This document shows, in pieces, positions 1 to 38,747 of a DNA stretch of 38,747 nt (the first letter of the stretch is position 1; every line of letters starts with the position of its first letter). The stretch is from a virus. The translations under genes and the position numbers were made by a program. The notes beneath the pieces are model-generated. The model did no database searches and was not told where the DNA came from. It worked only from the letters and a program-made list of their open reading frames with translations. The stretch covers positions 1-38,747 of the IMG/VR virus record IMGVR_UViG_3300012943_000019, one strand, 5' to 3'.

Positions 1-123
1 ATGAGGACATCGGAATTTTTGCAGTTCATGATACCCTTGTAAGTCAGGTTTTCGGCGGCAAACCGGAACCTCCCATGCAATGGCTGACTGACCCAAATCT
101 GCTTGGGGTCTTTTTGGGTAGCC
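1..123. repeat. Terminal direct repeat, left copy (identical to 38625..38747)
   Basis: Read base by base: ATGAGGACATCGGAATTTTTGCAG...GGTCTTTTTGGGTAGCC is present at both window ends, 123 nt, with no mismatch seen. Confidence 0.95.
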
Positions 124-2916: not shown

Positions 2917-3123
2917 ATGAACACTGTAAAAGTCGTGCATTACCGCTATCAGTTCAGGATTTTTCGGGCCAAACCTTCTTTCTGGGTAAGGCTCAAAGCG
3001 GCCCTTGTCTCGGCTGCCATCATTGTTGTAGTGTTGGCCGCTGGCATCGCCTCCGCTTTCATTAGCCCGGCATTACCCCCGTTGGTGGGGGCTTTGGGCG
3101 TTTTAGTGTGGATGGGGAGGTAG
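2917..3123 (+). CDS. Small membrane protein (68 aa), holin-like topology
   Basis: Strong SD AAAGGGGAGG. Two hydrophobic stretches (AALVSAAIIVVVLAAGIASAFI and LPPLVGALGVLVWM). Sits just upstream of the terminase genes, where P22 has its lysis genes. Confidence 0.55.
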   Translation: MNTVKVVHYRYQFRIFRAKPSFWVRLKAALVSAAIIVVVLAAGIASAFISPALPPLVGALGVLVWMGR

Positions 3124-3127
3124 CCCG

Positions 3128-3511
3128 ATGAGAGATTTTGCCGAATTCGGCCCCGGCACCCAAGTGCAGCGAGAATACGCGCGTGGCTTATTCCTCCGCG
3201 ACTATCTCTATTTTCGTAAAGACCGGGCTTTTCGCAAAGCAAACGACCACAAGACAGCCGCCGAAATGTGGCCTCTTTCTGTTGGTTATTCTCCCTTTAG
3301 CGGTATGACCCCGCTGGCTAGGCCGGTAAAGACGCATACCCCCAAAGATACCCCGATCTTCCCTTGTATTGTCACCAATGTAGGGTACGGCGCTGCCTCC
3401 ATGCACCCAGTAACCGCACAAGAGATTTTTGAGCGCCTAGACCCTACCCCCCATGTTGGGGGCGTTTCTGTCTTTGTTGATGAACGACCCTCCAATGTGA
3501 GGGAGGCATAA
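3128..3511 (+). CDS. Hypothetical protein (127 aa)
   Basis: SD GGGGAGG upstream. Abuts the small terminase start. Confidence 0.55.
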   Translation: MRDFAEFGPGTQVQREYARGLFLRDYLYFRKDRAFRKANDHKTAAEMWPLSVGYSPFSGMTPLARPVKTHTPKDTPIFPCIVTNVGYGAASMHPVTAQEIFERLDPTPHVGGVSVFVDERPSNVREA

Positions 3512-5341: not shown

Positions 5342-7359
5342 ACGAGACCCCCCAGACCCCCGAGCAGATGGAGCGCCAAAGGGCTATCCTCTCCGAATTC
5401 AAGGATAAGCAGTCTTCCTACCCTTCCCTGTGGTCTGACATCTACAAGACCTGTCAGGAGGATGAAGAGTTTGTGCTGCTGGGAATTCATATGTCCCCCC
5501 AGACAGCCCAGACCTACGGCTTCGGCGCTAACTACAAAATGCCGAATATGCTTAAGCCCTACATCAACAATCAGGCTAACCAGACCTTGCAGAACGACTA
5601 CAGGGCCACGGTAACCCCTAATGGGGGCGGGGCTGACATCACCAAGGCTAGGTGGCGTGAAGGGGCTTTAAGGGGTATTCAGCGGGTTGGTGGTGCTCCC
5701 GAGGTGTACAACTATGCCCGCCGTGGGCAGTTGGCTGGCGGCCTGCATTACTCCAAGATCGTCGTGGACTACGCCGATGCCCGGGGGCAGGAGAAGGAGT
5801 ATCAGTACGAGGACGTTCAGGACACCTATTCGGTGTTCCCTGACCCCTACGTCCAGAAGGCCACGTTCTCGGACATGGCCGACTTCCTCATTAAAGAGGA
5901 CATCCCCCGCAGCAAGTGGGAAGAGAAGACCGGGTCTAAGTGGACATACGGGGCGCAGAAGACCCATCCCATTTGGTTCTACTGGCGCAAGACCAAGGCA
6001 GGGACGGATAAGGAATACGTCACCTTGGATGGCGGCTCGGTGCTTGAATCTCAATTACAACCGGGGGCGGACGGTTCGCCGGACATGTCGAACATCAAAC
6101 TCATTAACGGGGAGCCATTCGCCCGTGAGGTGAACTCCTACGAGTGGGAATGGTTCGTCATTGACGACAACGGCGGGGCTATCTATAGCGAGGGGGCTTG
6201 GCTGGGTTGCTACCCTCCGCTCGTCTGCTGTTCCGGTGAGAAGATCGTCCAGAAGACCCCGCAGGGGGTTAAGGTGTACTACCGTTCCTTGGCCCATGAC
6301 GCCAAAGAACCGCAGATGGTGTACACGATTTGCGAGAACATCATTCTCTTGCAGCTTGCCAAAAGCCCCTACCCCCATTACGAGATTTCCGAGGGGTCTA
6401 TCCTACTCAAGCAGTTGGCAGACTATCGGGATAATGCGGTTATCGGGGACACGGATGTCGTGTACCGTGAGTACGACGACCAAGGTAACAAGGTCACCCC
6501 GCCCCGCCGCGTCTCTCCTGACGGGGTTGACCCTGAGCTTATTGCCTTGCAACAGGAGCAGTTGCAGAAGATCGAGCGCATCTTGGGTATCTATGACGCT
6601 GCCTTGGGCCAGAAGACCAACGAGAAGTCCGGGGTAGCCATTAAGGAGAGAGCCAAACAATCCAACCTCGCCAACTATCACTTTGAATTCAATTTCATCG
6701 AGTACGTGAAGCAGATGGGGTACGTGGTTCTGGAGTCCATGCCCAATTACCTGTCGGTGCAGCAGGTTATCCCCATGCTGGACGATGACGACAAGATTGT
6801 GATGCAAGAGATTAACGGGCCCGAGGGGATATCTTTCCGTGAGGGCGAGCGTTACCGCATGGTGATTGAGGTTGTGCCGGATTCGGATAGCAACCGTGAG
6901 GCAGAAGCGGCGATGCTTATGCATATGGTCGATTCTCCCATCCTCGGCCCGGCTATCATGCAGGCCAAGGGAGGCGCGGCTATGGTAGTCAAGGCCCAGC
7001 GTGGTAGGTACGCGCAGCAGCTTGGTAAGGCTCTTGAAGAGTCCAGCCAAGACCCTGAGAAGGAGGCGATGAAAGCCAAAATTCAGGAAATGCAGGCGGA
7101 GGGCAAGAAGCTACAGGAAGAGAACGCGGCCATGAAGCAGCAGAAGGATTTGGACTTCTTGAAGGAGCAGAACCGGAACGCTGAGGCTATGGCTAAGATC
7201 GAACTTGAACGAGAGAAACTAGCGGCTTCGGTAGCCAAGAACGCCGACGACACCGAAATCAAGGCTTTCGATTCGGAAACCAAGAGGAAACAGGTTGACG
7301 GGTTGCCTCAGAACCCCGAAAGCCTGCCCATGAATAACGAGGCCGAGGTATTAGTTTGA
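5338..7359 (+). CDS. Portal protein with long C-terminal coiled-coil extension
   Basis: 673 aa with ATGA coupling to terL. The K/E/Q-rich helical tail (EKEAMKAKIQEMQAEGKKLQEENAAMKQQKDLDFLKEQ...) recalls the P22 portal barrel. Confidence 0.8.
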   Translation: MNETPQTPEQMERQRAILSEFKDKQSSYPSLWSDIYKTCQEDEEFVLLGIHMSPQTAQTYGFGANYKMPNMLKPYINNQANQTLQNDYRATVTPNGGGADITKARWREGALRGIQRVGGAPEVYNYARRGQLAGGLHYSKIVVDYADARGQEKEYQYEDVQDTYSVFPDPYVQKATFSDMADFLIKEDIPRSKWEEKTGSKWTYGAQKTHPIWFYWRKTKAGTDKEYVTLDGGSVLESQLQPGADGSPDMSNIKLINGEPFAREVNSYEWEWFVIDDNGGAIYSEGAWLGCYPPLVCCSGEKIVQKTPQGVKVYYRSLAHDAKEPQMVYTICENIILLQLAKSPYPHYEISEGSILLKQLADYRDNAVIGDTDVVYREYDDQGNKVTPPRRVSPDGVDPELIALQQEQLQKIERILGIYDAALGQKTNEKSGVAIKERAKQSNLANYHFEFNFIEYVKQMGYVVLESMPNYLSVQQVIPMLDDDDKIVMQEINGPEGISFREGERYRMVIEVVPDSDSNREAEAAMLMHMVDSPILGPAIMQAKGGAAMVVKAQRGRYAQQLGKALEESSQDPEKEAMKAKIQEMQAEGKKLQEENAAMKQQKDLDFLKEQNRNAEAMAKIELEREKLAASVAKNADDTEIKAFDSETKRKQVDGLPQNPESLPMNNEAEVLV

Positions 7360-18541: not shown

Positions 18542-20287
18542 ATGAAAAACCTGATTCTCGCCCTCGCCTTCATCCAGGCTGTCGTCTTCGGTCAGTTTGT
18601 TACCCTGCCGAAGCCCGCGTACAAGACCGCCAATATGGATTCCGTAACTGGGAACGCCTTTACGTACATCCAGCCGGATTCATCGAAGACGGTTTTGCGC
18701 TCCATGAAAATGAGCCAGCTTGCAGGGTACATCGGGGCGGCGGGGTGTAATACTGCTTGCCAGAACGCGATTGCGGATTCTCTTTCCAAAAATGGATTTT
18801 CCTTACTTCGGGCGGATTCGATTATCGCCCCCTACGTGAATACCCCTAACCTCGCCCCCTTTAACACCGAGGGCATCAAGTTCGGCATCGAAAATGGATG
18901 GCACAAGGACACGGCCATCGCTAGTCCTTTCCGCACCCTTTCGGTTGTCCTGAATGGGCCTTCCACGATCGCGGGGGGAGGCGTCTCGGACAAGTACCTG
19001 TTGCAAAACGCTGTCGCGGAGAACCTCAAGTCCGCTGGCTTCCCGGTGGTCAGCATTGTCAATGCTGGTGCAGGCGGCGAAACGATCAAGTACTACCGCG
19101 ACAACCTCATGGCGGGGCAGCTCGCCGCAAACTATGACGTGATTTATCATGAATGGGGGGTTAACGAGGGCGCAATTCTTCGCGATTCATTCCTGATCAT
19201 TTACGATCAGGTCTTGGCCGCTACCCGGGCCATTAAAACCGTGCAAGAGCAGACGATTATTATCTCGTCGCCCACCGCAACCAACGATACCCCGAACGGT
19301 CGCGATTCCGTGTGGTACTTGTCCATCAATTCCGCGCTTCGTGACCTCGCCCGCAAGTACCAATGCGTTTTCAACGATACGTGGACAAAGTACCGCATCC
19401 CCTATGTCGGCCCGTGGGATGACGCCTATGGCGACGGGCGCTCAATCCATCCCACCGACCTCCTGAATATGCACCGAGCCGGGGACATCGCCGACGCCAT
19501 CGCGGATCAGGATGCGGCCCGACTTCTCGGGTCAAGCAAGCTCCACAACACCCTTTCCACCGCCGCTACGGTGGCCGCATCGGCTGCCCCCAATAGCACG
19601 AATGGAACTGGTTACCTGAATTACCCCTCCGGACTTTCCATGTACCGTGCTCAGACGGGCGATGGCTGGGCAAACGATGGTGCTGTTTATTCGCTGAAGC
19701 AAATGGATGGCGTCAGCCTTCAATTGAACAATCAGTTCAGCGGAAAAAATCTCGCGTATCGTAGCTGTGGCGGAACGAGCTGCCAAGAATTCCAGCATAT
19801 CCTGAGCGCAGACGCGAATGGATACGTTTCCGCTATTGGCCCGGGCTCTCTCAATTGGGCTAGCGGGCAAACCGTTGTCGGTGATGCCAATGGCGCGGTT
19901 TTTTATCGCATCATAAATGCAAATTCAGGGGGCAGCGCTTACGCAAGCTGGGTGTTGCAGAATAACGTGGAGAACTACGTAGAACTCTTCGCGGGATCTT
20001 CTGCTTATAACAGCACCGCAGGGAACTATCCAAATGGTGCCTTCTTGAGAAACATGAATGGCCCTTGGGTTCTCATCGCAGGCGGCGCGACCGACGCGGA
20101 CGCAAACGCTATTTTGGACACAAATGAAACGGTCTTTAAAAAGCCGGTTGTGAACATGGAGGACGTGGAGAACCAAGCGGACACCTACCTTCCCGCCTTG
20201 GCGGATCCCACCGTGGAGCTTTATCTCTGTATCACCCCTGTGACCGGCAAGCTCCGCGCCCGTGCCGTCGCGTGTGGTACGCCGTGA
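18542..20287 (+). CDS. SGNH/GDSL-type esterase-like protein with signal-peptide-like N-terminus (second receptor-binding or depolymerase candidate)
   Basis: N-terminus MKNLILALAFIQAVVFGQ. Blocks resembling SGNH I, II, III and V: VVLNGPSTIAG, NAGAGGET, EWGVNEG, GDGRSIHPTD. Confidence 0.5.
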   Translation: MKNLILALAFIQAVVFGQFVTLPKPAYKTANMDSVTGNAFTYIQPDSSKTVLRSMKMSQLAGYIGAAGCNTACQNAIADSLSKNGFSLLRADSIIAPYVNTPNLAPFNTEGIKFGIENGWHKDTAIASPFRTLSVVLNGPSTIAGGGVSDKYLLQNAVAENLKSAGFPVVSIVNAGAGGETIKYYRDNLMAGQLAANYDVIYHEWGVNEGAILRDSFLIIYDQVLAATRAIKTVQEQTIIISSPTATNDTPNGRDSVWYLSINSALRDLARKYQCVFNDTWTKYRIPYVGPWDDAYGDGRSIHPTDLLNMHRAGDIADAIADQDAARLLGSSKLHNTLSTAATVAASAAPNSTNGTGYLNYPSGLSMYRAQTGDGWANDGAVYSLKQMDGVSLQLNNQFSGKNLAYRSCGGTSCQEFQHILSADANGYVSAIGPGSLNWASGQTVVGDANGAVFYRIINANSGGSAYASWVLQNNVENYVELFAGSSAYNSTAGNYPNGAFLRNMNGPWVLIAGGATDADANAILDTNETVFKKPVVNMEDVENQADTYLPALADPTVELYLCITPVTGKLRARAVACGTP

Positions 20288-20718
20288 TGCGCCCTGTTTT
20301 CTTAGCTGCGTTCGCTGCGCTCCTTCTTGGGGCGTGCGCGAAACACCCTTCTGTTCAGGGGGCGCAGAACGACATTGAATCCCCGCGCAAGGAGCGTCCC
20401 GCGCCCTTGCCGCGATCCCTCCCGCTTTACTTCGGGTTTGACAGCGTGGAGGTCATGGATTCCGCGTGGGCCTCTCGCCTTGCGGGATTCATGTCCAACG
20501 ACACGTCCCTGCGCCTCGTTCTGACCGGCTACACGGACACCGTGGGCCGCGCGGGCTACAACGATACCCTGAGCCAGCGCCGGGCTGAGAACACCCTTGC
20601 GGCCATCATGGCGGTGGGCACCGACGCCATGCGTATCGAAGCCCGCTCAAGAGGCGAGCGCTCCCCCACCGCAGACCCCGCCAAATCGCGCCGCGTGACG
20701 GCAGTATTCAAACAGTAG
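20287..20718 (+). CDS. OmpA/Pal-like peptidoglycan-binding lipoprotein
   Basis: ATG at 20287 overlaps the upstream stop (TGATG). Lipobox LLLGAC. OmpA_C motif LTGYTDTVGRAGYNDTLSQRRAENT...RSRGE. Confidence 0.7.
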   Translation: MRPVFLAAFAALLLGACAKHPSVQGAQNDIESPRKERPAPLPRSLPLYFGFDSVEVMDSAWASRLAGFMSNDTSLRLVLTGYTDTVGRAGYNDTLSQRRAENTLAAIMAVGTDAMRIEARSRGERSPTADPAKSRRVTAVFKQ

Positions 20719-20730
20719 AGGATTCCCCAC

Positions 20731-21150
20731 GTGGCCCCGAACAAGCAGGAAAACTGGATCTTAAAAAACTGGAAACTGCTTGCGTGGGCGGTTCCTTTAC
20801 TCGTCGCCAGCGGTGACCAGCTCATAGGCAAGGGGCTGGCCGGGAAAGCCGCTCAGAACGCCATTCAGGACGCTATGAGGCCCATAGTCGAAGAATCGGT
20901 TAAGGGTGCAAGGGCGGACATGGACACCGTCAAATTGGCTGTCCGTGACGGGTTCGGGAAACAGGAAATCCGCCTAAGCAGAATTGAGCAGGCGCTTATC
21001 AAGTTACCCGGTGGAAAGAAGGTTCTCCGCGACATCAGGCGGGAAGAACAGGAGCGCAAGGAACTGCTGGGCGACGATCCTAAGGTTCCGTTCGACCCGT
21101 CAAAAGGTATTGGGTATTCGATTCAGCACGGGATATGGGGGGCTCAATGA
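20731..21150 (+). CDS. Type-II membrane protein with coiled-coil ectodomain (i-spanin-like or holin-like)
   Basis: GTG start with AGAGGA SD. One N-terminal TM segment (WKLLAWAVPLLVASG), then a charged helical region (...IRLSRIEQALIKL...RREEQERKELL). Confidence 0.55.
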   Translation: MAPNKQENWILKNWKLLAWAVPLLVASGDQLIGKGLAGKAAQNAIQDAMRPIVEESVKGARADMDTVKLAVRDGFGKQEIRLSRIEQALIKLPGGKKVLRDIRREEQERKELLGDDPKVPFDPSKGIGYSIQHGIWGAQ

Positions 21151-21575
21151 CTGAATCCAGCCGGATATTCTACAGGAACCACGTTCTAGGCGGCTATGAA
21201 CTTAGTCGAGAATTGGTCTTACATTCTGACCTGCACCCTGAAACCCGTATCTCCATCCCCGGCGCTACTCTGGACGTAGATGGAACCCTTACCCTTTCCC
21301 CCGGCTTCCGATGGGATGGGGCGACAGGGGCTTGCGATACGAAGAATTTCATGCGAGGTTCGGCAGGGCATGACGCTATTTACAATATGCACCAGCTAGA
21401 GCAGACAATGCCGAAGGACTGGAAGAAGAAAGCCGACTCCCTCTTAAACCGTCTTTGCCGTGAGGACGGGATGAGCGCATGGCGTCGGTGGTGGGTTCGG
21501 CAGGCTATCCGCAAGGGTGGTCACGCCCGGCCTAGAGACTTGAACCCGTCCCTTGTGGAGCACGTCGCCCCATGA
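21147..21575 (+). CDS. DUF1353-like protein
   Basis: ATG at 21147 overlaps the upstream stop (ATGA). Pattern PGFRWDGATG...GHDAIY...KKADSLLNRLCREDGMSAWRRWWVRQAIRKGG fits the DUF1353 layout as I recall it. Confidence 0.55.
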   Translation: MTESSRIFYRNHVLGGYELSRELVLHSDLHPETRISIPGATLDVDGTLTLSPGFRWDGATGACDTKNFMRGSAGHDAIYNMHQLEQTMPKDWKKKADSLLNRLCREDGMSAWRRWWVRQAIRKGGHARPRDLNPSLVEHVAP

Positions 21576-21976
21576 AAATCCTTATTCAGCGCAAACCCAC
21601 TACCCCCACCTACACCGAGGGGGAGATGTTCATCAATGGTGAATGGTGGGCCATGACTTTAGAGGACACCGTGCGCAAGGGGAAGAAGGTGTACGGACAG
21701 ACCGCTATCCCGGCTGGGAAGTATAGGGTTGTCGTGGACTACTCCGAGAAGTTCCGTAAAAAGATGACCCATATCCTGAGCGTCCCCGGTTTCGAGGGAA
21801 TCCGCTTGCATCAGGGTTGCCATCCTCGGGATTCCTATGGTTGCCCTCTATTGTCGAAGCGTAGGGGCGGAACTCCCGGCACCCTGACAGCCATGAAAGC
21901 TGGAATCCTGACAGACGAACTCACCCGCCTAGTAGAACAGGCAGGGGGCGCGGAGATAGAGATTAGGAACGGGTAA
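21572..21976 (+). CDS. DUF5675-like protein; possible His/Cys cell-wall peptidase
   Basis: TEGEMFINGEWWAMTLED...IPAGKYRV...VPGFEGIRLHQGCHPRDSYGCPLL fits the DUF5675 pattern. The H-x-G...S-x-G-C tail resembles YkuD-type catalytic motifs. Confidence 0.55.
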   Translation: MKILIQRKPTTPTYTEGEMFINGEWWAMTLEDTVRKGKKVYGQTAIPAGKYRVVVDYSEKFRKKMTHILSVPGFEGIRLHQGCHPRDSYGCPLLSKRRGGTPGTLTAMKAGILTDELTRLVEQAGGAEIEIRNG

Positions 21977-22869: not shown

Positions 22870-23373
22870 TCATTGTTCATTCCCTTTCTTGGCGCGGGCC
22901 ATGGTTTGTTTTTTCTTTCTTACGCAGTCTCGAACAGCTTTATTAGCACAAATCCGACACTCGCGGCGATCTTTTCTACTTGTCAAATTGCTTCCCAATA
23001 ACGGATGCCCGTTATTGCAATGGGTTTTCAGCCTTTGATAGGAATTAATAACGCTTGCAGGAGGGTGTTTCAGTCTCCCTTTTTTAAGGGCATCGCGTAC
23101 ATTATCGCCTTGAGTTCCTGCGAAAAGGTGGTGAGGATTCACGCATGGAGGGTTATCGCAAGCATGGCATACCACAAGCCCCTCTTGAAGCGCACCGTTG
23201 TGGATTTTGTACGAAACTCGATGCGCTCTTAAGCTCCTTCCTTTAAAGAAAAATTGTCCGTACTCGCGAGCGCATCTTCGCCCATGCCATTCCCAACATT
23301 CATTTTTATCGCCGGGAGATACATTTTCCCAAAACGCCGAAACGATCCTATCGGTGACTTCGAATTCGATCAT
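22870..23373 (-). CDS. HNH endonuclease (HNH_3 type)
   Basis: ECWEWHG...YGQFFF...[12 protein letters not shown]...[27 protein letters not shown] is the classic free-standing phage HNH signature. Confidence 0.8.
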
Positions 23374-25439: not shown

Positions 25440-25936
25440 TTCCCGCCCCCGGAGGAGCGGAGAGCCCGCTGGTAAATTCGAATTAAGGCTGATGCGGCCG
25501 CGCCGTCCCCGGCCTGCGCCATCGTTTCGACGTGCTTTAAGGTTCCCCACGCCTCGCGTTCCAAGGCCAAGAGTTCCAGCGCCTCCGGGGCCACCGGCGC
25601 TACGGGGGAGGCGTACAGGGGGACGGTATACAGCTTGACGCGATCCCAGTTGTACTTTTCGCCTTCCGTTTTATCCAAGGCCGTGATAAACACGGTAGGG
25701 GTGTCCGACCGCGTCCACGCCACCACCTCCCCCTGTGGCGCAAGGGCCGCAACGTCGGAGAGGCGGACGAGGGGTTCGGTGTAGTCCGCTCGGTCTTTTT
25801 TCAGGTACTCGTTGGCGGAACCCTCGGCGTACGCCTTTGTGACAGCGGTTATTACGCCTCCACCGGATCCCTCAGGCGCCATCCACGCTACAATGTCGAG
25901 CCCTTCCAGCCCCTTCGGGTTAAATTCCTCTTTCAT
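25436..25936 (-). CDS. Hypothetical protein (166 aa)
   Basis: ORF with ATGA and GTGA coupling on its two sides. Confidence 0.6.
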   Translation of the reverse strand: MKEEFNPKGLEGLDIVAWMAPEGSGGGVITAVTKAYAEGSANEYLKKDRADYTEPLVRLSDVAALAPQGEVVAWTRSDTPTVFITALDKTEGEKYNWDRVKLYTVPLYASPVAPVAPEALELLALEREAWGTLKHVETMAQAGDGAAASALIRIYQRALRSSGGGK

Positions 25937-26436
25937 TTTTTGCCTCCCTCGGTTGATTCAATGATGTTCAGTCGGGCAAATTCGCCGTGATATTTAAGCG
26001 CCGCCTCGTTGTAGGCCATGGCCGCTTCCGTCTCGGACTTGAAATACCCTAGTGCCACACGCTGCCCGCCGCCAATTTTTATTCTGGCGCGGAACTTGTT
26101 TTCGTTTTTGGACCAGCCAACGCCTCTATACTTTGAAGTCCCATCGAGGTTTGGCTTTCGATTTCGGCAGTTCTCCGTAAGAGTGCAGAGGCGAAGGTTT
26201 GCCCTTTGATTGTCCAACTTGTCGCCGTTGATGTGGTCAACGAGGACACCGCTGGCAGCATTCAGTATGGAGCGGTGCATTAATAGATTGCGACGTCTCC
26301 CGTCTGGAACTCGTCGCCGGGCGTAGCCCTTTTCTGTTATGGTCCATTTCCATTGGTTCAGGGGTTCAAAGTCCTCGTCGTCCACCTTTACAAAGGTGTT
26401 CGGGTGCTTCGGAGTTGAAACATCGATCAGCTTCAT
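25933..26436 (-). CDS. HNH endonuclease with C-terminal AP2 DNA-binding domain
   Basis: LLMHRSIL...VDHINGDKLDNQRANLRLCTLTENCRN is the HNH part. YRGVGWSKNENKFRARI...LGYFKSETEAAMAYNEAALKYHGEFARLN is the AP2 part. Confidence 0.75.
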   Translation of the reverse strand: MKLIDVSTPKHPNTFVKVDDEDFEPLNQWKWTITEKGYARRRVPDGRRRNLLMHRSILNAASGVLVDHINGDKLDNQRANLRLCTLTENCRNRKPNLDGTSKYRGVGWSKNENKFRARIKIGGGQRVALGYFKSETEAAMAYNEAALKYHGEFARLNIIESTEGGKK

Positions 26437-28185: not shown

Positions 28186-28361
28186 TTCTTCTCCCCCAAG
28201 TGAAATCTAAGGTACGTGTTGTGCCAGTCCGCGATTACATCCGCTACTGTGGGGCGTGGGCCGTCTTTTGCCTTCTCCCATGCGCGAATTCGACGCTTTA
28301 CCTCTGAAACCGCCGCCCTGTTGTCAGCGGCATGAATCCTTGCGAAAGTTGGCTTTTTCAC
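28182..28361 (-). CDS. Hypothetical basic protein (59 aa, VKKPTFARIHAADNRAAVSEVKRRIRAWEK...)
   Basis: Not in the ORF track. GTGA overlap with the pentapeptide gene stop and ATGA overlap with the next start. Confidence 0.4.
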   Translation of the reverse strand: MKKPTFARIHAADNRAAVSEVKRRIRAWEKAKDGPRPTVADVIADWHNTYLRFHLGEKK

Positions 28362-28984
28362 AGTTTCCCCGCCTGCGCCTTGAGTTCTTCGGCCTTCTGG
28401 ATCAATTCATCAGCCTTGGCGAGAAGTTCCGATTTTGCCGGGTTGGCGTCGATCTTAATTCCGGTGATTTCCTCAAAAATATCCGCGTCGAAATTGGGAA
28501 GGGACTTTGTTTTTTCTATGTCCTCCTTCGTCGCCTTCTTCCACAAAGTAGCCCATGCCGCTTTGTAATCGTGAGTTTTCAGGTATCCATCACAAACGTA
28601 GGCTTTCGGCCACTCCTTCTTTTCTTCGGCGGTCATATCCGAGAAGCTAACCCACTCGGTAATTACGAGGTTTTGGAAAATTTCGGGAAGAAGTCCGAAA
28701 GCCTCTTCATGGGTAAGGTTCGTGTCCTTGTTGAACATTCGGGCTTTAGGGGTATCGCTGTTCCAGTAGCCGCTGTTCCAGTAGCCGCTGTTCCAGTTGC
28801 CGCTGTTCCGGTCGCCGCTGTTCCAGTTGCCGCTGTTCCGGTCGCCGCTGTTCCGGTCGCCGCTGTTCCAGTTGCCGCTGTTCCAGTTGCCGCTGTTCCG
28901 GTCGCCGCTGTTCCGGTAGCCGCTGTTCCAGTTGCCGCTGTTCCAGTTGCCCGTATTTTCGATTCCGGTATTGCCTTCTGCCAT
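28358..28984 (-). CDS. Atypical pentapeptide-repeat protein (208 aa): 13 x G-[NDY]-[WR]-N-S plus a globular C-terminal domain
   Basis: MAEGNTGIENT(GNWNS)2 GYRNS GDRNS ... (GYWNS)2 DTPKARMFNK.... SD AAGGAGG and its own sigma70-like promoter upstream. Confidence 0.85.
   Translation of the reverse strand: MAEGNTGIENTGNWNSGNWNSGYRNSGDRNSGNWNSGNWNSGDRNSGDRNSGNWNSGDRNSGNWNSGYWNSGYWNSDTPKARMFNKDTNLTHEEAFGLLPEIFQNLVITEWVSFSDMTAEEKKEWPKAYVCDGYLKTHDYKAAWATLWKKATKEDIEKTKSLPNFDADIFEEITGIKIDANPAKSELLAKADELIQKAEELKAQAGKL
28757..28951. repeat. Tandem repeat of 13 x 15 nt (gctgttccNgtNgcc), in frame within 28358..28984
   Basis: Counted unit by unit. Units differ only at two positions (a/g and a/t/c), giving 4 unit types: 6 x NW, 4 x DR, 2 x YW, 1 x YR. 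Confidence 0.95.
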
Positions 28985-29010
28985 AACGCCTCCTTGTTGG
29001 TGATGAGTAG

Positions 29011-29039
29011 AACTTAGGTTAACGGTGCACGGTTTACAA
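29011..29039 (-). promoter_or_regulatory. Sigma70-like promoter for the pentapeptide-repeat gene
   Basis: Minus-sense TTGTAA (29039..29034), 17-nt spacer, TAAGTT (29016..29011), about 25 nt upstream of the SD. Confidence 0.45.
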
Positions 29040-32186: not shown

Positions 32187-32950
32187 TAGATGTGGGGGCT
32201 TCTGGGGTCAGAGTGATAGTTTCTGGCGCGTTCTTCGAAGGAGGGCTTTATCACGGGGGCAGCGTATTCGACCGTCCAGCGCTCTTCCGTAATCCACCCT
32301 TGGAAATGCTTGATAAACTTCCGTTCCGTTTTTTCACGCTGGATATGTGCTCGAAAGGCTAGAATGGCTGGCATAAGGAGGGGGACTATTTCTGCCGCCC
32401 TCTTTCCGTGTCGTGCTTGGAAATGCTTCCATTCAGTTTCTAGCCCACGCCGAGTACCGGGATACGCTTGACGGGCCGCGTCGAATTGGATTTTTAAATC
32501 GTTTTGTTTTCCCCCCGCGCCCCCCTTTCCCTTTTCATCTTCACTATCAATATCAGAGATTTGGTTAGGATTTTGGTTAAGCAAATCTTTCTTCAATTTG
32601 GGGTTTCCACCCAATTTTCCGCACTCTGAGCGGATACTCCTTAGTTCCTCGTCCCGAATCATGCGACGGCAAACCAAAGCCCCATCCTTTTCGTCACGCG
32701 AAGCTACCCCGTAGGTTAGAAGGTTGGTTAAGTGGGTGGTTGCTTTTTGCTTATCCAAACCGAGGTACCGAGCAATAGCTTCGTCCGGCATAGGTTGGCC
32801 GTTCAAGAGCAGTTTCCCCCGCTCCGAGGATTCGAACATGAGCATAAGGATTTCAAACCAGATGCCACGGGTTTCGTAGTCCAAGGACTGAACGCCCGGG
32901 TCTTTCCTCCAGTCTCCCGGGTAAAATTGGATATAGGGTAGTTTGGCCAT
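32186..32950 (-). CDS. DUF1376-like replication-associated protein
   Basis: LPYIQFYPGDWRKDPGVQSLDYETRGIWFEILMLMF is the hallmark DUF1376 N-terminus. TAATG coupling to the primase-helicase. Confidence 0.6.
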   Translation of the reverse strand: MAKLPYIQFYPGDWRKDPGVQSLDYETRGIWFEILMLMFESSERGKLLLNGQPMPDEAIARYLGLDKQKATTHLTNLLTYGVASRDEKDGALVCRRMIRDEELRSIRSECGKLGGNPKLKKDLLNQNPNQISDIDSEDEKGKGGAGGKQNDLKIQFDAARQAYPGTRRGLETEWKHFQARHGKRAAEIVPLLMPAILAFRAHIQREKTERKFIKHFQGWITEERWTVEYAAPVIKPSFEERARNYHSDPRSPHI

Positions 32951-33387
32951 TAGAAAGGTTTCGGCTGATTTTTCAGATGCTCAAAGAATGCTTCTCTGGC
33001 GTTATCCATTAATTCTCTGCTTGAAAACAGGAATTGCAAAACGGAGGCGGTAACGTCAGGGGCATACACCACTTGCAGGGTTTCAAACCCTTCTGAAATC
33101 GTGTTTATGTCGGAAAGAGAAAACCCGCATTTAGCGAGGGATTCCCAAAGCCGTGTACGCTCGCGGCCATCGTCGTATTCCCCCGCGTGGCAGCTTGCGC
33201 AAAGCGTAACCAAAGCCCATTCGGGGTAGTCCCATGGCTCAGTTTTGGGTCGGTAAATACGGTGATGGACGTGTAATGTGCTTGCGGAATCAAAGCAAAT
33301 CATGCAGGTGAATTGATCCCTGCTCAAAATTTCAAGCCGTTTTTTCTGCCAGCGCGGGTCGAGCAGTTTTTCGGAATATGTAGTCAT
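32950..33387 (-). CDS. HNH-motif protein (145 aa)
   Basis: DPRWQKKRLEILSRDQFTCMIC...LHVHHRIY...LVTLCASCH. Confidence 0.6.
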   Translation of the reverse strand: MTTYSEKLLDPRWQKKRLEILSRDQFTCMICFDSASTLHVHHRIYRPKTEPWDYPEWALVTLCASCHAGEYDDGRERTRLWESLAKCGFSLSDINTISEGFETLQVVYAPDVTASVLQFLFSSRELMDNAREAFFEHLKNQPKPF

Positions 33388-36312: not shown

Positions 36313-36837
36313 TTAGTCTGGCAATCCGATTGCGGCCTTGATGTAGCGCAAATGTTTTCTTTTGGTTGACAGGTCGGTTCCGTGCATTGTTCTGTACCTC
36401 TTGATTGACTGGTCGTATGACAAGTATCGGTGCGCTTTTGCGTGGTCTGCGATAGTAAGTTCTATCGTGTCTAAAAAGTGTTCTTGACTATAAGACCAAT
36501 GATGGTTGTTATGCCCTTCCTTCACCTTAATCTTGCATACCGCGTGATATGCCGCTTTTTTCTCTGGGTACGCATTCCTAAATGCCTTCGCCGCCCTTGA
36601 AGCCCTATCCGAAGGGGTTTTATGAATGTCTTTGTATCCAAGGCGGTGGTATTTCTCCCTCCCGCGCTTCCTTTCGGAGATAATCCATTTAGGGTCTTTG
36701 CTTTTTTCTTCCGCCCTAGCCTTGGTGTCAGCCTTGGTGCAGTCTTTGCATTTTCCCAAATAGCCGTCGCCCATGGCTGGGTGTTTGTAGAACTCCGTAA
36801 AAGGAAGGCTTTTGAAACATTTGAAGCAGGTTTTCAT
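36313..36837 (-). CDS. HNH endonuclease-like protein (174 aa)
   Basis: Start moved to ATG 36837. N-terminal CFKC...GKCKDC Cys cluster, then GHNNHHWSY...TIADHAKAH. Confidence 0.55.
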   Translation of the reverse strand: MKTCFKCFKSLPFTEFYKHPAMGDGYLGKCKDCTKADTKARAEEKSKDPKWIISERKRGREKYHRLGYKDIHKTPSDRASRAAKAFRNAYPEKKAAYHAVCKIKVKEGHNNHHWSYSQEHFLDTIELTIADHAKAHRYLSYDQSIKRYRTMHGTDLSTKRKHLRYIKAAIGLPD

Positions 36838-36875
36838 CTGAATAAATGTAGTCAAAAGCCCTATAAAACGGAAGG

Positions 36876-37418
36876 CTAGAACGGTAATTCCGAATCGTCG
36901 TGCGGCGGAGCCTGATTCTCGCTGCCCGCATCCATCGACGCCGCCCGGAGTTTCGCAACCCACTTGGTCAACCATTCCGGTTTTTCCTTGTTCACGGGAA
37001 CCAAGGGGGCCATACCGTCCATGAGGGGGGTGATGCTGGCGATGTTCGAATACTTGCCGTCCGTGGTGTGGACGAAATTCAGGAGGCAGGGACGCCCCAA
37101 GAACATATCCACGTCAAACCGCTTGAGTTCGGCTTCCGTGAAATCCCCACCATTCCATGCAGCGAGGTCGGCCCGAAGCTGGGCACTTTCGTACATGGAC
37201 GCGGTGTACTTCTTGGAAATGATGAACGGCTTTCCATCGGCCTGTTTCTTGGATGTTTCCCAGAAGAAAAGCAACTTGCGCTGGATCTTCTCTTTGCCCT
37301 TCCATTCGCCCTTGTGGCGTCCGATGTCCTCGATCCACAGGCAGACGGCGTTAGCCATTCCTGCCGGGTGTTTCTCGCGTTCCTGCTGATTCTCGTTCTC
37401 TTCGATGTAAGTAGGCAT
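36876..37418 (-). CDS. ssDNA-binding-like protein with SSB-type C-terminal tip
   Basis: 180 aa ending ...ENQAPPHDDSELPF (compare bacterial SSB ...DDDIPF). The core pattern ...LLFFWETS...ISKKYTASMYESAQLRADLAAWNG..FTEAE...FDVDMFLGRPCLLNFVHT...YSNIASITP is typical of phage non-canonical SSBs. Confidence 0.55.
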   Translation of the reverse strand: MPTYIEENENQQEREKHPAGMANAVCLWIEDIGRHKGEWKGKEKIQRKLLFFWETSKKQADGKPFIISKKYTASMYESAQLRADLAAWNGGDFTEAELKRFDVDMFLGRPCLLNFVHTTDGKYSNIASITPLMDGMAPLVPVNKEKPEWLTKWVAKLRAASMDAGSENQAPPHDDSELPF

Positions 37419-38579: not shown

Positions 38580-38747
38580 AGCTTCACCCCGAGCTTTTCA
38601 GACAGGGCGTCAAGGGCGGCTGTCATGAGGACATCGGAATTTTTGCAGTTCATGATACCCTTGTAAGTCAGGTTTTCGGCGGCAAACCGGAACCTCCCAT
38701 GCAATGGCTGACTGACCCAAATCTGCTTGGGGTCTTTTTGGGTAGCC
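38576..38747 (-). CDS. 3' portion of the junction-spanning gene (same gene as 1..185)
   Basis: The frame entering from the repeat continues ...NSDVLMTAALDALSEKLGVKL to stop TGA at 38578..38576. Confidence 0.5.
   Translation of the reverse strand, partial: ATQKDPKQIWVSQPLHGRFRFAAENLTYKGIMNCKNSDVLMTAALDALSEKLGVKL
38625..38747. repeat. Terminal direct repeat, right copy (identical to 1..123)
   Basis: Same 123-nt string as 1..123. The unique genome length is 38,624 bp. Confidence 0.95.

Follow-up and report, generated by a model that had tools for sequence, protein, structure and literature searches.

The 38,747-nucleotide virus record IMGVR_UViG_3300012943_000019 of IMG/VR, the whole length of which is called the window below, raises the question of how a phage opens its host cell when its genome encodes no classical endolysin that can be recognised. 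We examined a cluster of four small genes at 20287..21976, which encode an OmpA_C lipoprotein, a small membrane protein, a DUF1353-family protein and a DUF5675 protein. The comparison with related loci supports the membership of these genes in a lysis cassette, a swap of unrelated enzymes in its endolysin slot, and the conservation of the catalytic residues. The evidence leans towards the cluster being the host-lysis cassette of a complete phage of ∼38.6 kb, working by the mechanism set out in the last section. The functional assignments of all four proteins are predictions from comparative genomics. An initial annotation of the window had proposed the cluster as an undescribed lysis or envelope-remodelling system: the lysis module, with DUF5675 as its best endolysin candidate, is strengthened by the slot swap, while the 'Pal-like' label of the lipoprotein, the spanin-pair model and the view taken of the DUF1353 protein had to be revised.

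The late-arm cluster and its endolysin slot

The late arm of the window ends with four open reading frames (ORFs) on the + strand, with products of 143, 139, 142 and 134 amino acids. The first encodes an OmpA_C outer-membrane lipoprotein, a putative accessory member of the cassette (20287..20718). The second encodes a small membrane protein with an N-terminal transmembrane (TM) segment, a candidate holin or i-spanin-like component (20731..21150). They are followed by the gene of a DUF1353-family protein, predicted to be a group-XIV-like phospholipase A2 (PLA2; 21147..21575), and by that of a DUF5675 protein, predicted to be an endolysin of the Cys/His peptidoglycan peptidase kind (21572..21976), the final late-arm gene. 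The same four products appear in an independent public gene call of this contig. The junction sequences bear out the earlier claim that the four genes are translationally coupled and close the late arm: the ATG of the lipoprotein gene shares 1 nt with the TGA of the upstream gene for a 581-residue protein (TGATG), a 12-nt spacer separates the lipoprotein gene from the GTG start at 20731, which has an AGAGGA Shine-Dalgarno sequence 8 nt upstream, and the junctions at 21147 and 21572 are ATGA start/stop overlaps.

To place the cluster among its relatives, we compared it with contigs encoding close homologues of its DUF1353 or DUF5675 genes (L001, L002, L084, L086 and L089). The DUF1353 gene is 73% identical to that of the window in L084 and 63% identical in L086. 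In both loci the next gene overlaps its stop codon with a start codon, ends the late arm and encodes a VanY/Peptidase_M15_4 protein of 146–147 amino acids. This family includes well-known phage endolysins. The same slot is occupied by DUF5675 in the window, in L001 and in the more distant L089. A trio of a charged single-TM protein, a DUF1353 protein and an endolysin thus recurs in the window and in L001, L084, L086 and L089; the gene of the charged single-TM protein lies 5' of the DUF1353 gene in all five. In L002 the DUF5675 gene is preceded by genes for a 109-residue single-TM protein and a 64-residue protein with two TM segments. The loci are mosaic, and the window shares with L084 and L086 only the DUF1353 gene and the OmpA gene (30%). 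Since the shared genes are those of the cassette, the exchange is a module swap rather than a divergence of sister genomes. The non-orthologous replacement by M15_4 at a fixed position makes the DUF5675 protein most likely the endolysin, and it is the strongest evidence for this role that could be obtained here.

The surroundings of DUF5675 genes in other viruses point in the same direction. More than 556 contigs of IMG/VR encode DUF5675 relatives. Among 69 distinct viral loci, 50 have a gene for a small TM protein on the same strand and no more than two genes away from DUF5675. Small TM proteins make up 42% of the neighbours at this distance and 14% of more distant genes (odds ratio 4.4, p=6e-16), figures that come from crude ORF calls and a crude TM predictor on loci that are related and not independent. 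In the crAss-like phage cr131_1 an annotated holin gene directly adjoins the DUF5675 homologue. The DUF5675 fold also recurs within phage proteins of 868–1251 amino acids, as is often the case with peptidoglycan hydrolase domains.

The window carries an exact direct terminal repeat of 123 bp (1..123 = 38625..38747), which indicates a complete genome of ∼38.6 kb, either circularly assembled or terminally redundant. A scan of its ∼55 ORFs, structural, ejection and early genes included, against Pfam and/or PHROGs found no lysozyme, amidase, transglycosylase, peptidase-type lysin or holin families, in agreement with the initial annotation, which had seen no classical endolysin by eye. No spanin pair could be recognised in the genome, and the other frames of 20731..21575 contain no lipobox ORF that could be an embedded o-spanin.

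The initial annotation had named 2917..3511 as an example of a place where an endolysin, holin and spanin set might lie. Lysis genes of P22 and lambda sit upstream of terS, and two genes with strong GGGGAGG ribosome-binding sites lie directly upstream of terS in the window as well. The first (2917..3123, + strand), at the start of the late operon and outside the cluster, encodes a 68-residue protein with two TM segments, which we regard as a tentative alternative holin or pinholin candidate; it has no charged C-terminal tail, and PHROG and NCBIfam assigned it no family. The adjoining gene (3128..3511) encodes a 127-residue protein of no known family. We considered it as a hidden endolysin in the P22-type position and rejected it, as Pfam, PHROGs and NCBIfam revealed no hydrolase signature in it.

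The four proteins and competing readings

The product of 20287..20718 has a hydrophobic N-terminus, MRPVFLAAFAALLLGA, that leads into the cysteine of the lipobox LLGA/C, with Ala at position +2. The mature lipoprotein has 125 residues and a globular OmpA_C domain (Pfam OmpA PF00691, E=4.6e-10, 40 bits against a cutoff of 27), including the peptidoglycan-binding motif TGYTDTVG...NDTLSQRRA. The lipobox and the OmpA_C motif noted earlier are therefore both confirmed. The description as 'Pal-like' holds at the level of the domain but fails at the equivalog level. About 20 NCBIfam OmpA-domain families match the protein, all far under their equivalog cutoffs: the Pal models reach 41.2 of 125 bits (TIGR02802) and 23.7 of 261 bits (PRK10802), and the sub-threshold matches to the LptF, YiaD, PA1041 and YfiB models are similar to those of Pal. 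The protein is therefore an OmpA_C lipoprotein and no orthologue of Pal. It resembles the Pal, OmpA-family and Lpp tethers of bacteria in its lipobox and in an OmpA_C domain with the TD...G and LSxRRA motifs, and differs from Pal, YiaD and YfiB by scoring far below their cutoffs, by being phage-encoded and by its place in a late lysis cluster.

A lipoprotein of this kind is found in two of the six compared cassettes, those of the window and of L086, whose homologue is 30% identical and has a lipobox of its own (LSSC). The cassettes of L084, L002 and L089 lack a lipoprotein. L001 encodes an 86-residue lipoprotein between DUF1353 and DUF5675 (5771-6031 of that contig), which weakly resembles the alanine zipper of Lpp/OprI (E=1e-4, below the cutoff). 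The relatives of the window thus carry look-alikes of two different host tethers between the outer membrane and peptidoglycan. Further relatives of the OmpA lipoprotein were sought in IMG/VR and none was found; a search of the literature for OmpA-like lipoproteins in phage lysis returned nothing relevant.

This scattered distribution raises the possibility that the lipoprotein is a moron, serving superinfection exclusion, interference with Tol-Pal or stabilisation of the envelope, and has no part in lysis. PHROGs places OmpA-like phage proteins in its 'moron' category (phrog_26111), and the local GC content is slightly raised, at 0.60 for 20–21 kb against ∼0.55 elsewhere. However, the lipoprotein gene is coupled on both sides within the late arm, and late expression would be odd timing for exclusion. 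In L086, too, the lipoprotein gene is part of the cassette, with genes for small secreted and TM proteins around it. We regard a non-lysis role as possible but doubtful, and treat the OmpA_C lipoprotein as an optional accessory of the cassette.

The product of 20731..21150 has a short basic N-terminus, a single Gly/Ala-rich TM segment and a charged C-terminal domain (34% charged residues in the tail), with a C-terminal PFDPSKG motif. Its TM segment is weakly hydrophobic, with a best 17-residue Kyte-Doolittle mean of 1.56, which is only marginal. The earlier description as a type-II coiled-coil membrane protein is right as to the single TM segment and the charged tail, but the coiled coil could not be verified: a crude heptad test scored the protein no better than shuffled sequence, and the tail has Gly/Pro breaks. 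Pfam, PHROG and NCBIfam contain no family that matches it, holin families included. An exhaustive phmmer search of 1.84 billion representative proteins yielded two relatives only, both of the same topology and one of them with the same C-terminal motif, PFDPS[KE]G; a word-index search returned only the protein itself. Its counterparts by position in L001 and L084 show weak similarity to it (E 3e-7 and 6e-5 in a small database). Given its topology and constant position beside DUF1353, this charged single-TM protein is probably the holin of the cassette, as a candidate.

The initial annotation had instead paired it with the lipoprotein as a spanin-like system. In such a model the pair would span the periplasm and disrupt or fuse the membranes once the DUF5675 protein has removed the peptidoglycan, with DUF1353 as an accessory. 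Adjoining, coupled genes for a lipoprotein and a type-II membrane protein within a lysis cassette are what such a pair would look like, lipoproteins also occur in the cassettes of L001 and L086, and the conserved C-terminal motif of the membrane protein could be an interaction site. Yet the pair itself is not conserved: three cassettes have no lipoprotein, that of L001 is of another type, and in L086 one gene intervenes between the lipoprotein and the membrane protein. Rz1-type o-spanins are short and Pro-rich, unlike this lipoprotein with its globular peptidoglycan-binding domain. The lipoprotein gene comes first, the reverse of the usual order of i-spanin and o-spanin, and the heptad test lends the coiled coil no support. 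A spanin pair is therefore unlikely.

The last gene of the cluster encodes a clear member of DUF5675 (PF18925, E=1.5e-22, 80 bits against 26.7; residues 4–110 on positions 1–101 of the 114-position profile), and all 23 homologues that we aligned match the same family. In these 23 diverse sequences H80 and C91 are invariant and G90 nearly so, with the consensus IHxGNTxxDTxGCILVG. Both the family and the terminal His/Cys signature that had been read from the window by eye are thus well founded. The relation to L,D-transpeptidases of the YkuD type (MEROPS C82), suggested at the same time, is more delicate. The spacing between the His and the Cys is 11 residues, below the canonical 14–17 of L,D-transpeptidases and close to the 10 of Tlde1a, a type VI secretion system L,D-carboxypeptidase/transpeptidase whose L,D-transpeptidase fold is altered and whose catalytic residues are H121, H129 and C131 (PMC9638812). 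Five of the 23 members give weak matches to Pfam Tlde1_dom (best E=0.022); in the two that we inspected the matching segments are colinear with the profile, and one spans the H...GC region. The AlphaFold2 model of the protein is confident (pLDDT 90). In a Foldseek search of the PDB, its second-ranked match is the L,D-transpeptidase LdtMt2 (5lb1_B, E=0.09, probability 0.57, TMq 0.36), which is the only match above a probability of 0.5; there is none at E<=0.001.

Searches with the DUF5675 profile against PDB sequences gave only noise, and hhalign of DUF5675 with E. coli LdtA, LdtB, LdtC and LdtE gave a probability of 0.6%. The assignment of the fold is weak for these two reasons; with the hhalign value, homology to the E. 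coli L,D-transpeptidases was set aside and YkuD membership lowered to suggestive. The resemblance lies in the invariant His and Cys in the H-x-G...G-C-[IL] motif and the spacing like that of Tlde1a, beside the weak matches to Tlde1_dom and LdtMt2. The DUF5675 protein differs from Tlde1a and YkuD in that significant sequence or profile similarity is lacking, in its much smaller size, in having no evident capping subdomain, and in standing in an endolysin slot, whereas they are a secreted toxin and a housekeeping cross-linker.

The idea of DUF5675 as an L,D-peptidase-like lysin is not new, and is itself a prediction from structure and annotation. GenBank records of crAss-like phages label DUF5675 homologues 'L,D-carboxypeptidase/transpeptidase', and a 2026 preprint proposes, from structural similarity (US-align), that DUF5675 is a 'C82-like' lysin domain. 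The word 'undescribed' in the initial annotation is accordingly too strong for this component.

The same features could also belong to an enzyme of the Tlde1 kind, an L,D-carboxypeptidase or exchange enzyme, whose editing of stem peptides would weaken or remodel the wall and leave its actual breakage to host autolysins or to membrane damage by the PLA2. The weak Tlde1_dom matches, the His-Cys spacing and the crAss-phage annotation are compatible with such an enzyme. However, an endolysin-type M15_4 peptidase takes its place in the same slot of relatives, and the scan of the genome found no other lysin. This makes editing as the sole role quite improbable.

The DUF1353 assignment of 21147..21575 is less direct. 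The protein scores 14.9 bits with the Pfam model PF07087, below the threshold of 22.5 (E=0.021). Precomputed PF07087 matches exist for its homologues found at E 1e-15 to 1e-18, and phrog_1158 matches it at 2.9e-11. This indicates a divergent member of the DUF1353 family, so that the pattern noticed earlier is upheld by way of homologues. Within the family, three residues are invariant (H75, D76 and D107) and two more nearly so (D57 and D97). An hmmsearch with the family profile against the PDB found the phospholipase A2 7ygk as best match (E=0.0028), with the HD motif and D97 of the profile aligned to HD and Asp of 7ygk. The AlphaFold2 model (pLDDT 85) has an N-terminal beta region and a core of three helices (66–83, 92–106 and 111–124). 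Its top Foldseek match in the PDB is the actinobacterial PLA2 8k1w (probability 0.54, TMt 0.44, root-mean-square deviation 3.3 over 76 columns), at a poor E of 1.0.

Phospholipase activity at the sn-2 position has been demonstrated experimentally in this family only for its founding characterised member TtaP, a DUF1353 protein of the typhoid-toxin islet with an H70/D85 dyad and D71, and its authors proposed that TtaP supplies the outer-membrane perturbation required by the endolysin-derived TtsA (PMC11525133). The window protein belongs to the same Pfam family as a divergent member, conserves the His-Asp pair and a further Asp (H75-D76, D97/D107), has a three-helix core in its model, and is likewise encoded beside the gene of a peptidoglycan hydrolase, a predicted one in the window and the endolysin-derived muramidase TtsA in the islet. 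It differs in falling below the Pfam threshold, in a longer N-terminal beta region and in its place in a phage late operon, and its activity is a prediction. By homology and modelling we predict the product of 21147..21575 to be a phospholipase A2 of the TtaP family, a point overlooked in the initial annotation.

We surveyed the neighbours of DUF1353 in 80 viral loci, which comprise 92 non-redundant same-strand neighbours within two genes. At most 13 of these 92 carry peptidoglycan-hydrolase families; the 13 is a sum of per-family counts, in which a match to two related M15 models could make one protein count double. A holin family is carried by one neighbour. The hydrolases are GH108 (four), M15_3 (two) and one each of M15_4, M15_2, M23, GH19, Phage_lysozyme, Hydrolase_2 and DUF5675. 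This is several-fold over expectation if one endolysin per 35–60 genes is assumed, which is our own estimate.

The least likely reading is that DUF5675 and DUF1353 serve entry into the cell and not exit from it, as virion-associated enzymes that would help the phage through peptidoglycan and outer membrane, or as a tail chaperone, with lysis left to other genes such as 2917..3511. In its favour, the tail and ejection genes come directly before the cluster, PHROGs gives phrog_1158 the label 'tail assembly chaperone', DUF1353 genes lie beside tail-fibre genes in Francisella phage KIRK and in a further locus (L088), very large phage proteins contain the DUF5675 fold, and the two genes upstream of terS would be at hand. 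On the other side, the slot in L084 and L086 is taken by a small M15_4 protein that stands alone, as is typical of endolysins, the neighbours of DUF5675 are enriched in small TM proteins and include an annotated holin, the 127-residue protein has no hydrolase signature, and the membrane and lipoprotein genes of the cluster cannot encode virion parts. The embedded copies of the fold are found in phage proteins of 868–1251 amino acids (BFVD matches, for example of Ralstonia phage RP31, 1251 amino acids). These copies suggest a second, virion-associated use of the DUF5675 domain.

Other features of the genome

The late arm occupies ∼2.9 to 22.0 kb of the + strand and encodes the small and large terminase subunits, a P22-like portal (PF16510, E=9e-61), a scaffold, the major capsid protein, head-closure and ejection-like proteins. 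The early and replication genes lie on the - strand at ∼22 to 38 kb and include PrimPol-DnaB, several HNH endonucleases, VRR-NUC and a PAPS (3'-phosphoadenosine 5'-phosphosulfate) reductase. A megablast search of 14–24 kb of the window against INPHARED gave no match to known phages. We also tried to assign a host through DUF5675 homologues in GTDB genomes; the best match, in Herbaspirillum, has 53% identity and is too distant.

Directly upstream of the cluster, in the tail-fibre position, 18542..20287 (+ strand) encodes an SGNH/GDSL-hydrolase protein of 581 amino acids (Pfam Lipase_GDSL_2, E=8.1e-10; phrog_8460 'tail fiber', E=7.8e-5). It has a hydrophobic N-terminus resembling a signal peptide, a type found in the window and its relatives and exemplified by MKNLILALAFIQAVVFGQF and MKKLLIGLILGLSSIANAQF. 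The large variable proteins at the tail-fibre position of L001 (2236-4533), L084 (2732-4333) and L086 (1905-3407) have N-termini of the same type, and several signal-peptide proteins of 64–116 amino acids are also encoded there in the relatives. Such an N-terminus is odd for virion proteins, which assemble in the cytoplasm.

The window has unusually many homing-type nuclease genes for a genome of 38 kb, all on the - strand (22870..23373, 25933..26436, 32950..33387 and 36313..36975): three HNH endonucleases, one of them fused to an AP2 DNA-binding domain, and one endonuclease-VII-like protein. Two long ORFs overlap on opposite strands, 28256..29017 (+) and 28358..28984 (-). The - strand product is a pentapeptide-repeat protein (PF01469, E=4.5e-13), and the + strand ORF is therefore probably spurious.

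The proposed course of lysis and its meaning

If the cluster is a lysis cassette, the product of 20731..21150 would be its holin-like component, permeabilising the inner membrane or setting the timing; a role as an analogue of i-spanin is less likely, and the 68-residue protein of 2917..3123 would be the alternative holin. No signal peptide or signal-arrest-release (SAR) sequence is evident in either the DUF1353 or the DUF5675 protein, so both should stay in the cytoplasm until the holin opens the inner membrane. The DUF5675 protein, for which the comparison supports an endolysin role and which is predicted to be a small Cys/His peptidase of the cytoplasm with a distant likeness to Tlde1 and L,D-transpeptidases, would then reach the periplasm through the holin and cut the stem peptides or cross-links of peptidoglycan. 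The predicted DUF1353 phospholipase would be released together with it and hydrolyse envelope phospholipids, for example those of the inner leaflet of the outer membrane, and so perform or assist the final outer-membrane disruption, the step carried out elsewhere by spanins or disruptins. The optional OmpA_C lipoprotein, anchored in the outer membrane and bound to peptidoglycan, may act in tethering, timing or exclusion.

A number of points weigh against this course of events. None of the four proteins could be matched to a known holin family, and the TM segment of the candidate holin is only marginally hydrophobic. The fold of the DUF5675 protein is weakly assigned, and L,D-carboxypeptidase activity would not by itself suffice for lysis. 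A cytoplasmic phospholipase should be toxic before lysis unless it is regulated, and in Salmonella TtaP itself did no overt damage to the envelope. Some DUF1353 genes, such as those of KIRK and L088, are not neighbours of an endolysin gene, and the PHROGs label of the family names a tail assembly chaperone. The mosaic structure of the compared loci and the crudeness of the neighbour statistics count on the same side.

The proposed cassette is similar to canonical ones, such as S-R-Rz/Rz1 of lambda and 13-19-15 of P22, in being compact and co-directional, with coupled genes for a membrane protein, a wall enzyme and an outer-membrane function, and in having an endolysin slot that is exchangeable between unrelated families, here DUF5675 and M15_4. 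It differs from them in that no known holin, endolysin or spanin family can be detected in it, in its position at the end of the late arm and not before terS, and in the presence of a predicted phospholipase and a peptidoglycan-binding lipoprotein. Mycobacteriophage LysB and the patatin of phage WO are comparable cases of a lipolytic enzyme encoded beside an endolysin or holin and proposed to breach an outer lipid layer in the last step; LysB, a cutinase-like esterase, and the patatin have folds unrelated to the predicted group-XIV-like PLA2 of the window and act on other hosts and other outer layers.

A broader and more tentative suggestion is that the window exemplifies a spanin-independent lysis of diderm hosts, in which a DUF1353 phospholipase dismantles the outer membrane, DUF5675 cuts the wall and lipoproteins mimicking host tethers, of the OmpA_C or Lpp type, modulate the process. 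As a corollary, the TtsA/TtaP pair would be a domesticated copy of such a system. The TtaP and TtsA genes resemble prophage genes (PMC11525133), and the typhoid-toxin islet may therefore derive from a cassette like that of the window.

Should DUF5675 prove to be a true endolysin, this would give a function to a family that occurs in over 550 viral contigs and in crAss-like phages, and also in numerous genomes of Bacteroidota and Burkholderiales, and would add a new Cys/His, L,D-peptidase-like catalytic class of lysins. If the DUF1353 phospholipases act at lysis, they would represent a third solution of Gram-negative phages to the outer-membrane barrier, besides spanins and disruptins. Such a role would also provide a concrete origin and function for TtaP in the release of typhoid toxin, as the missing step of outer-membrane perturbation.

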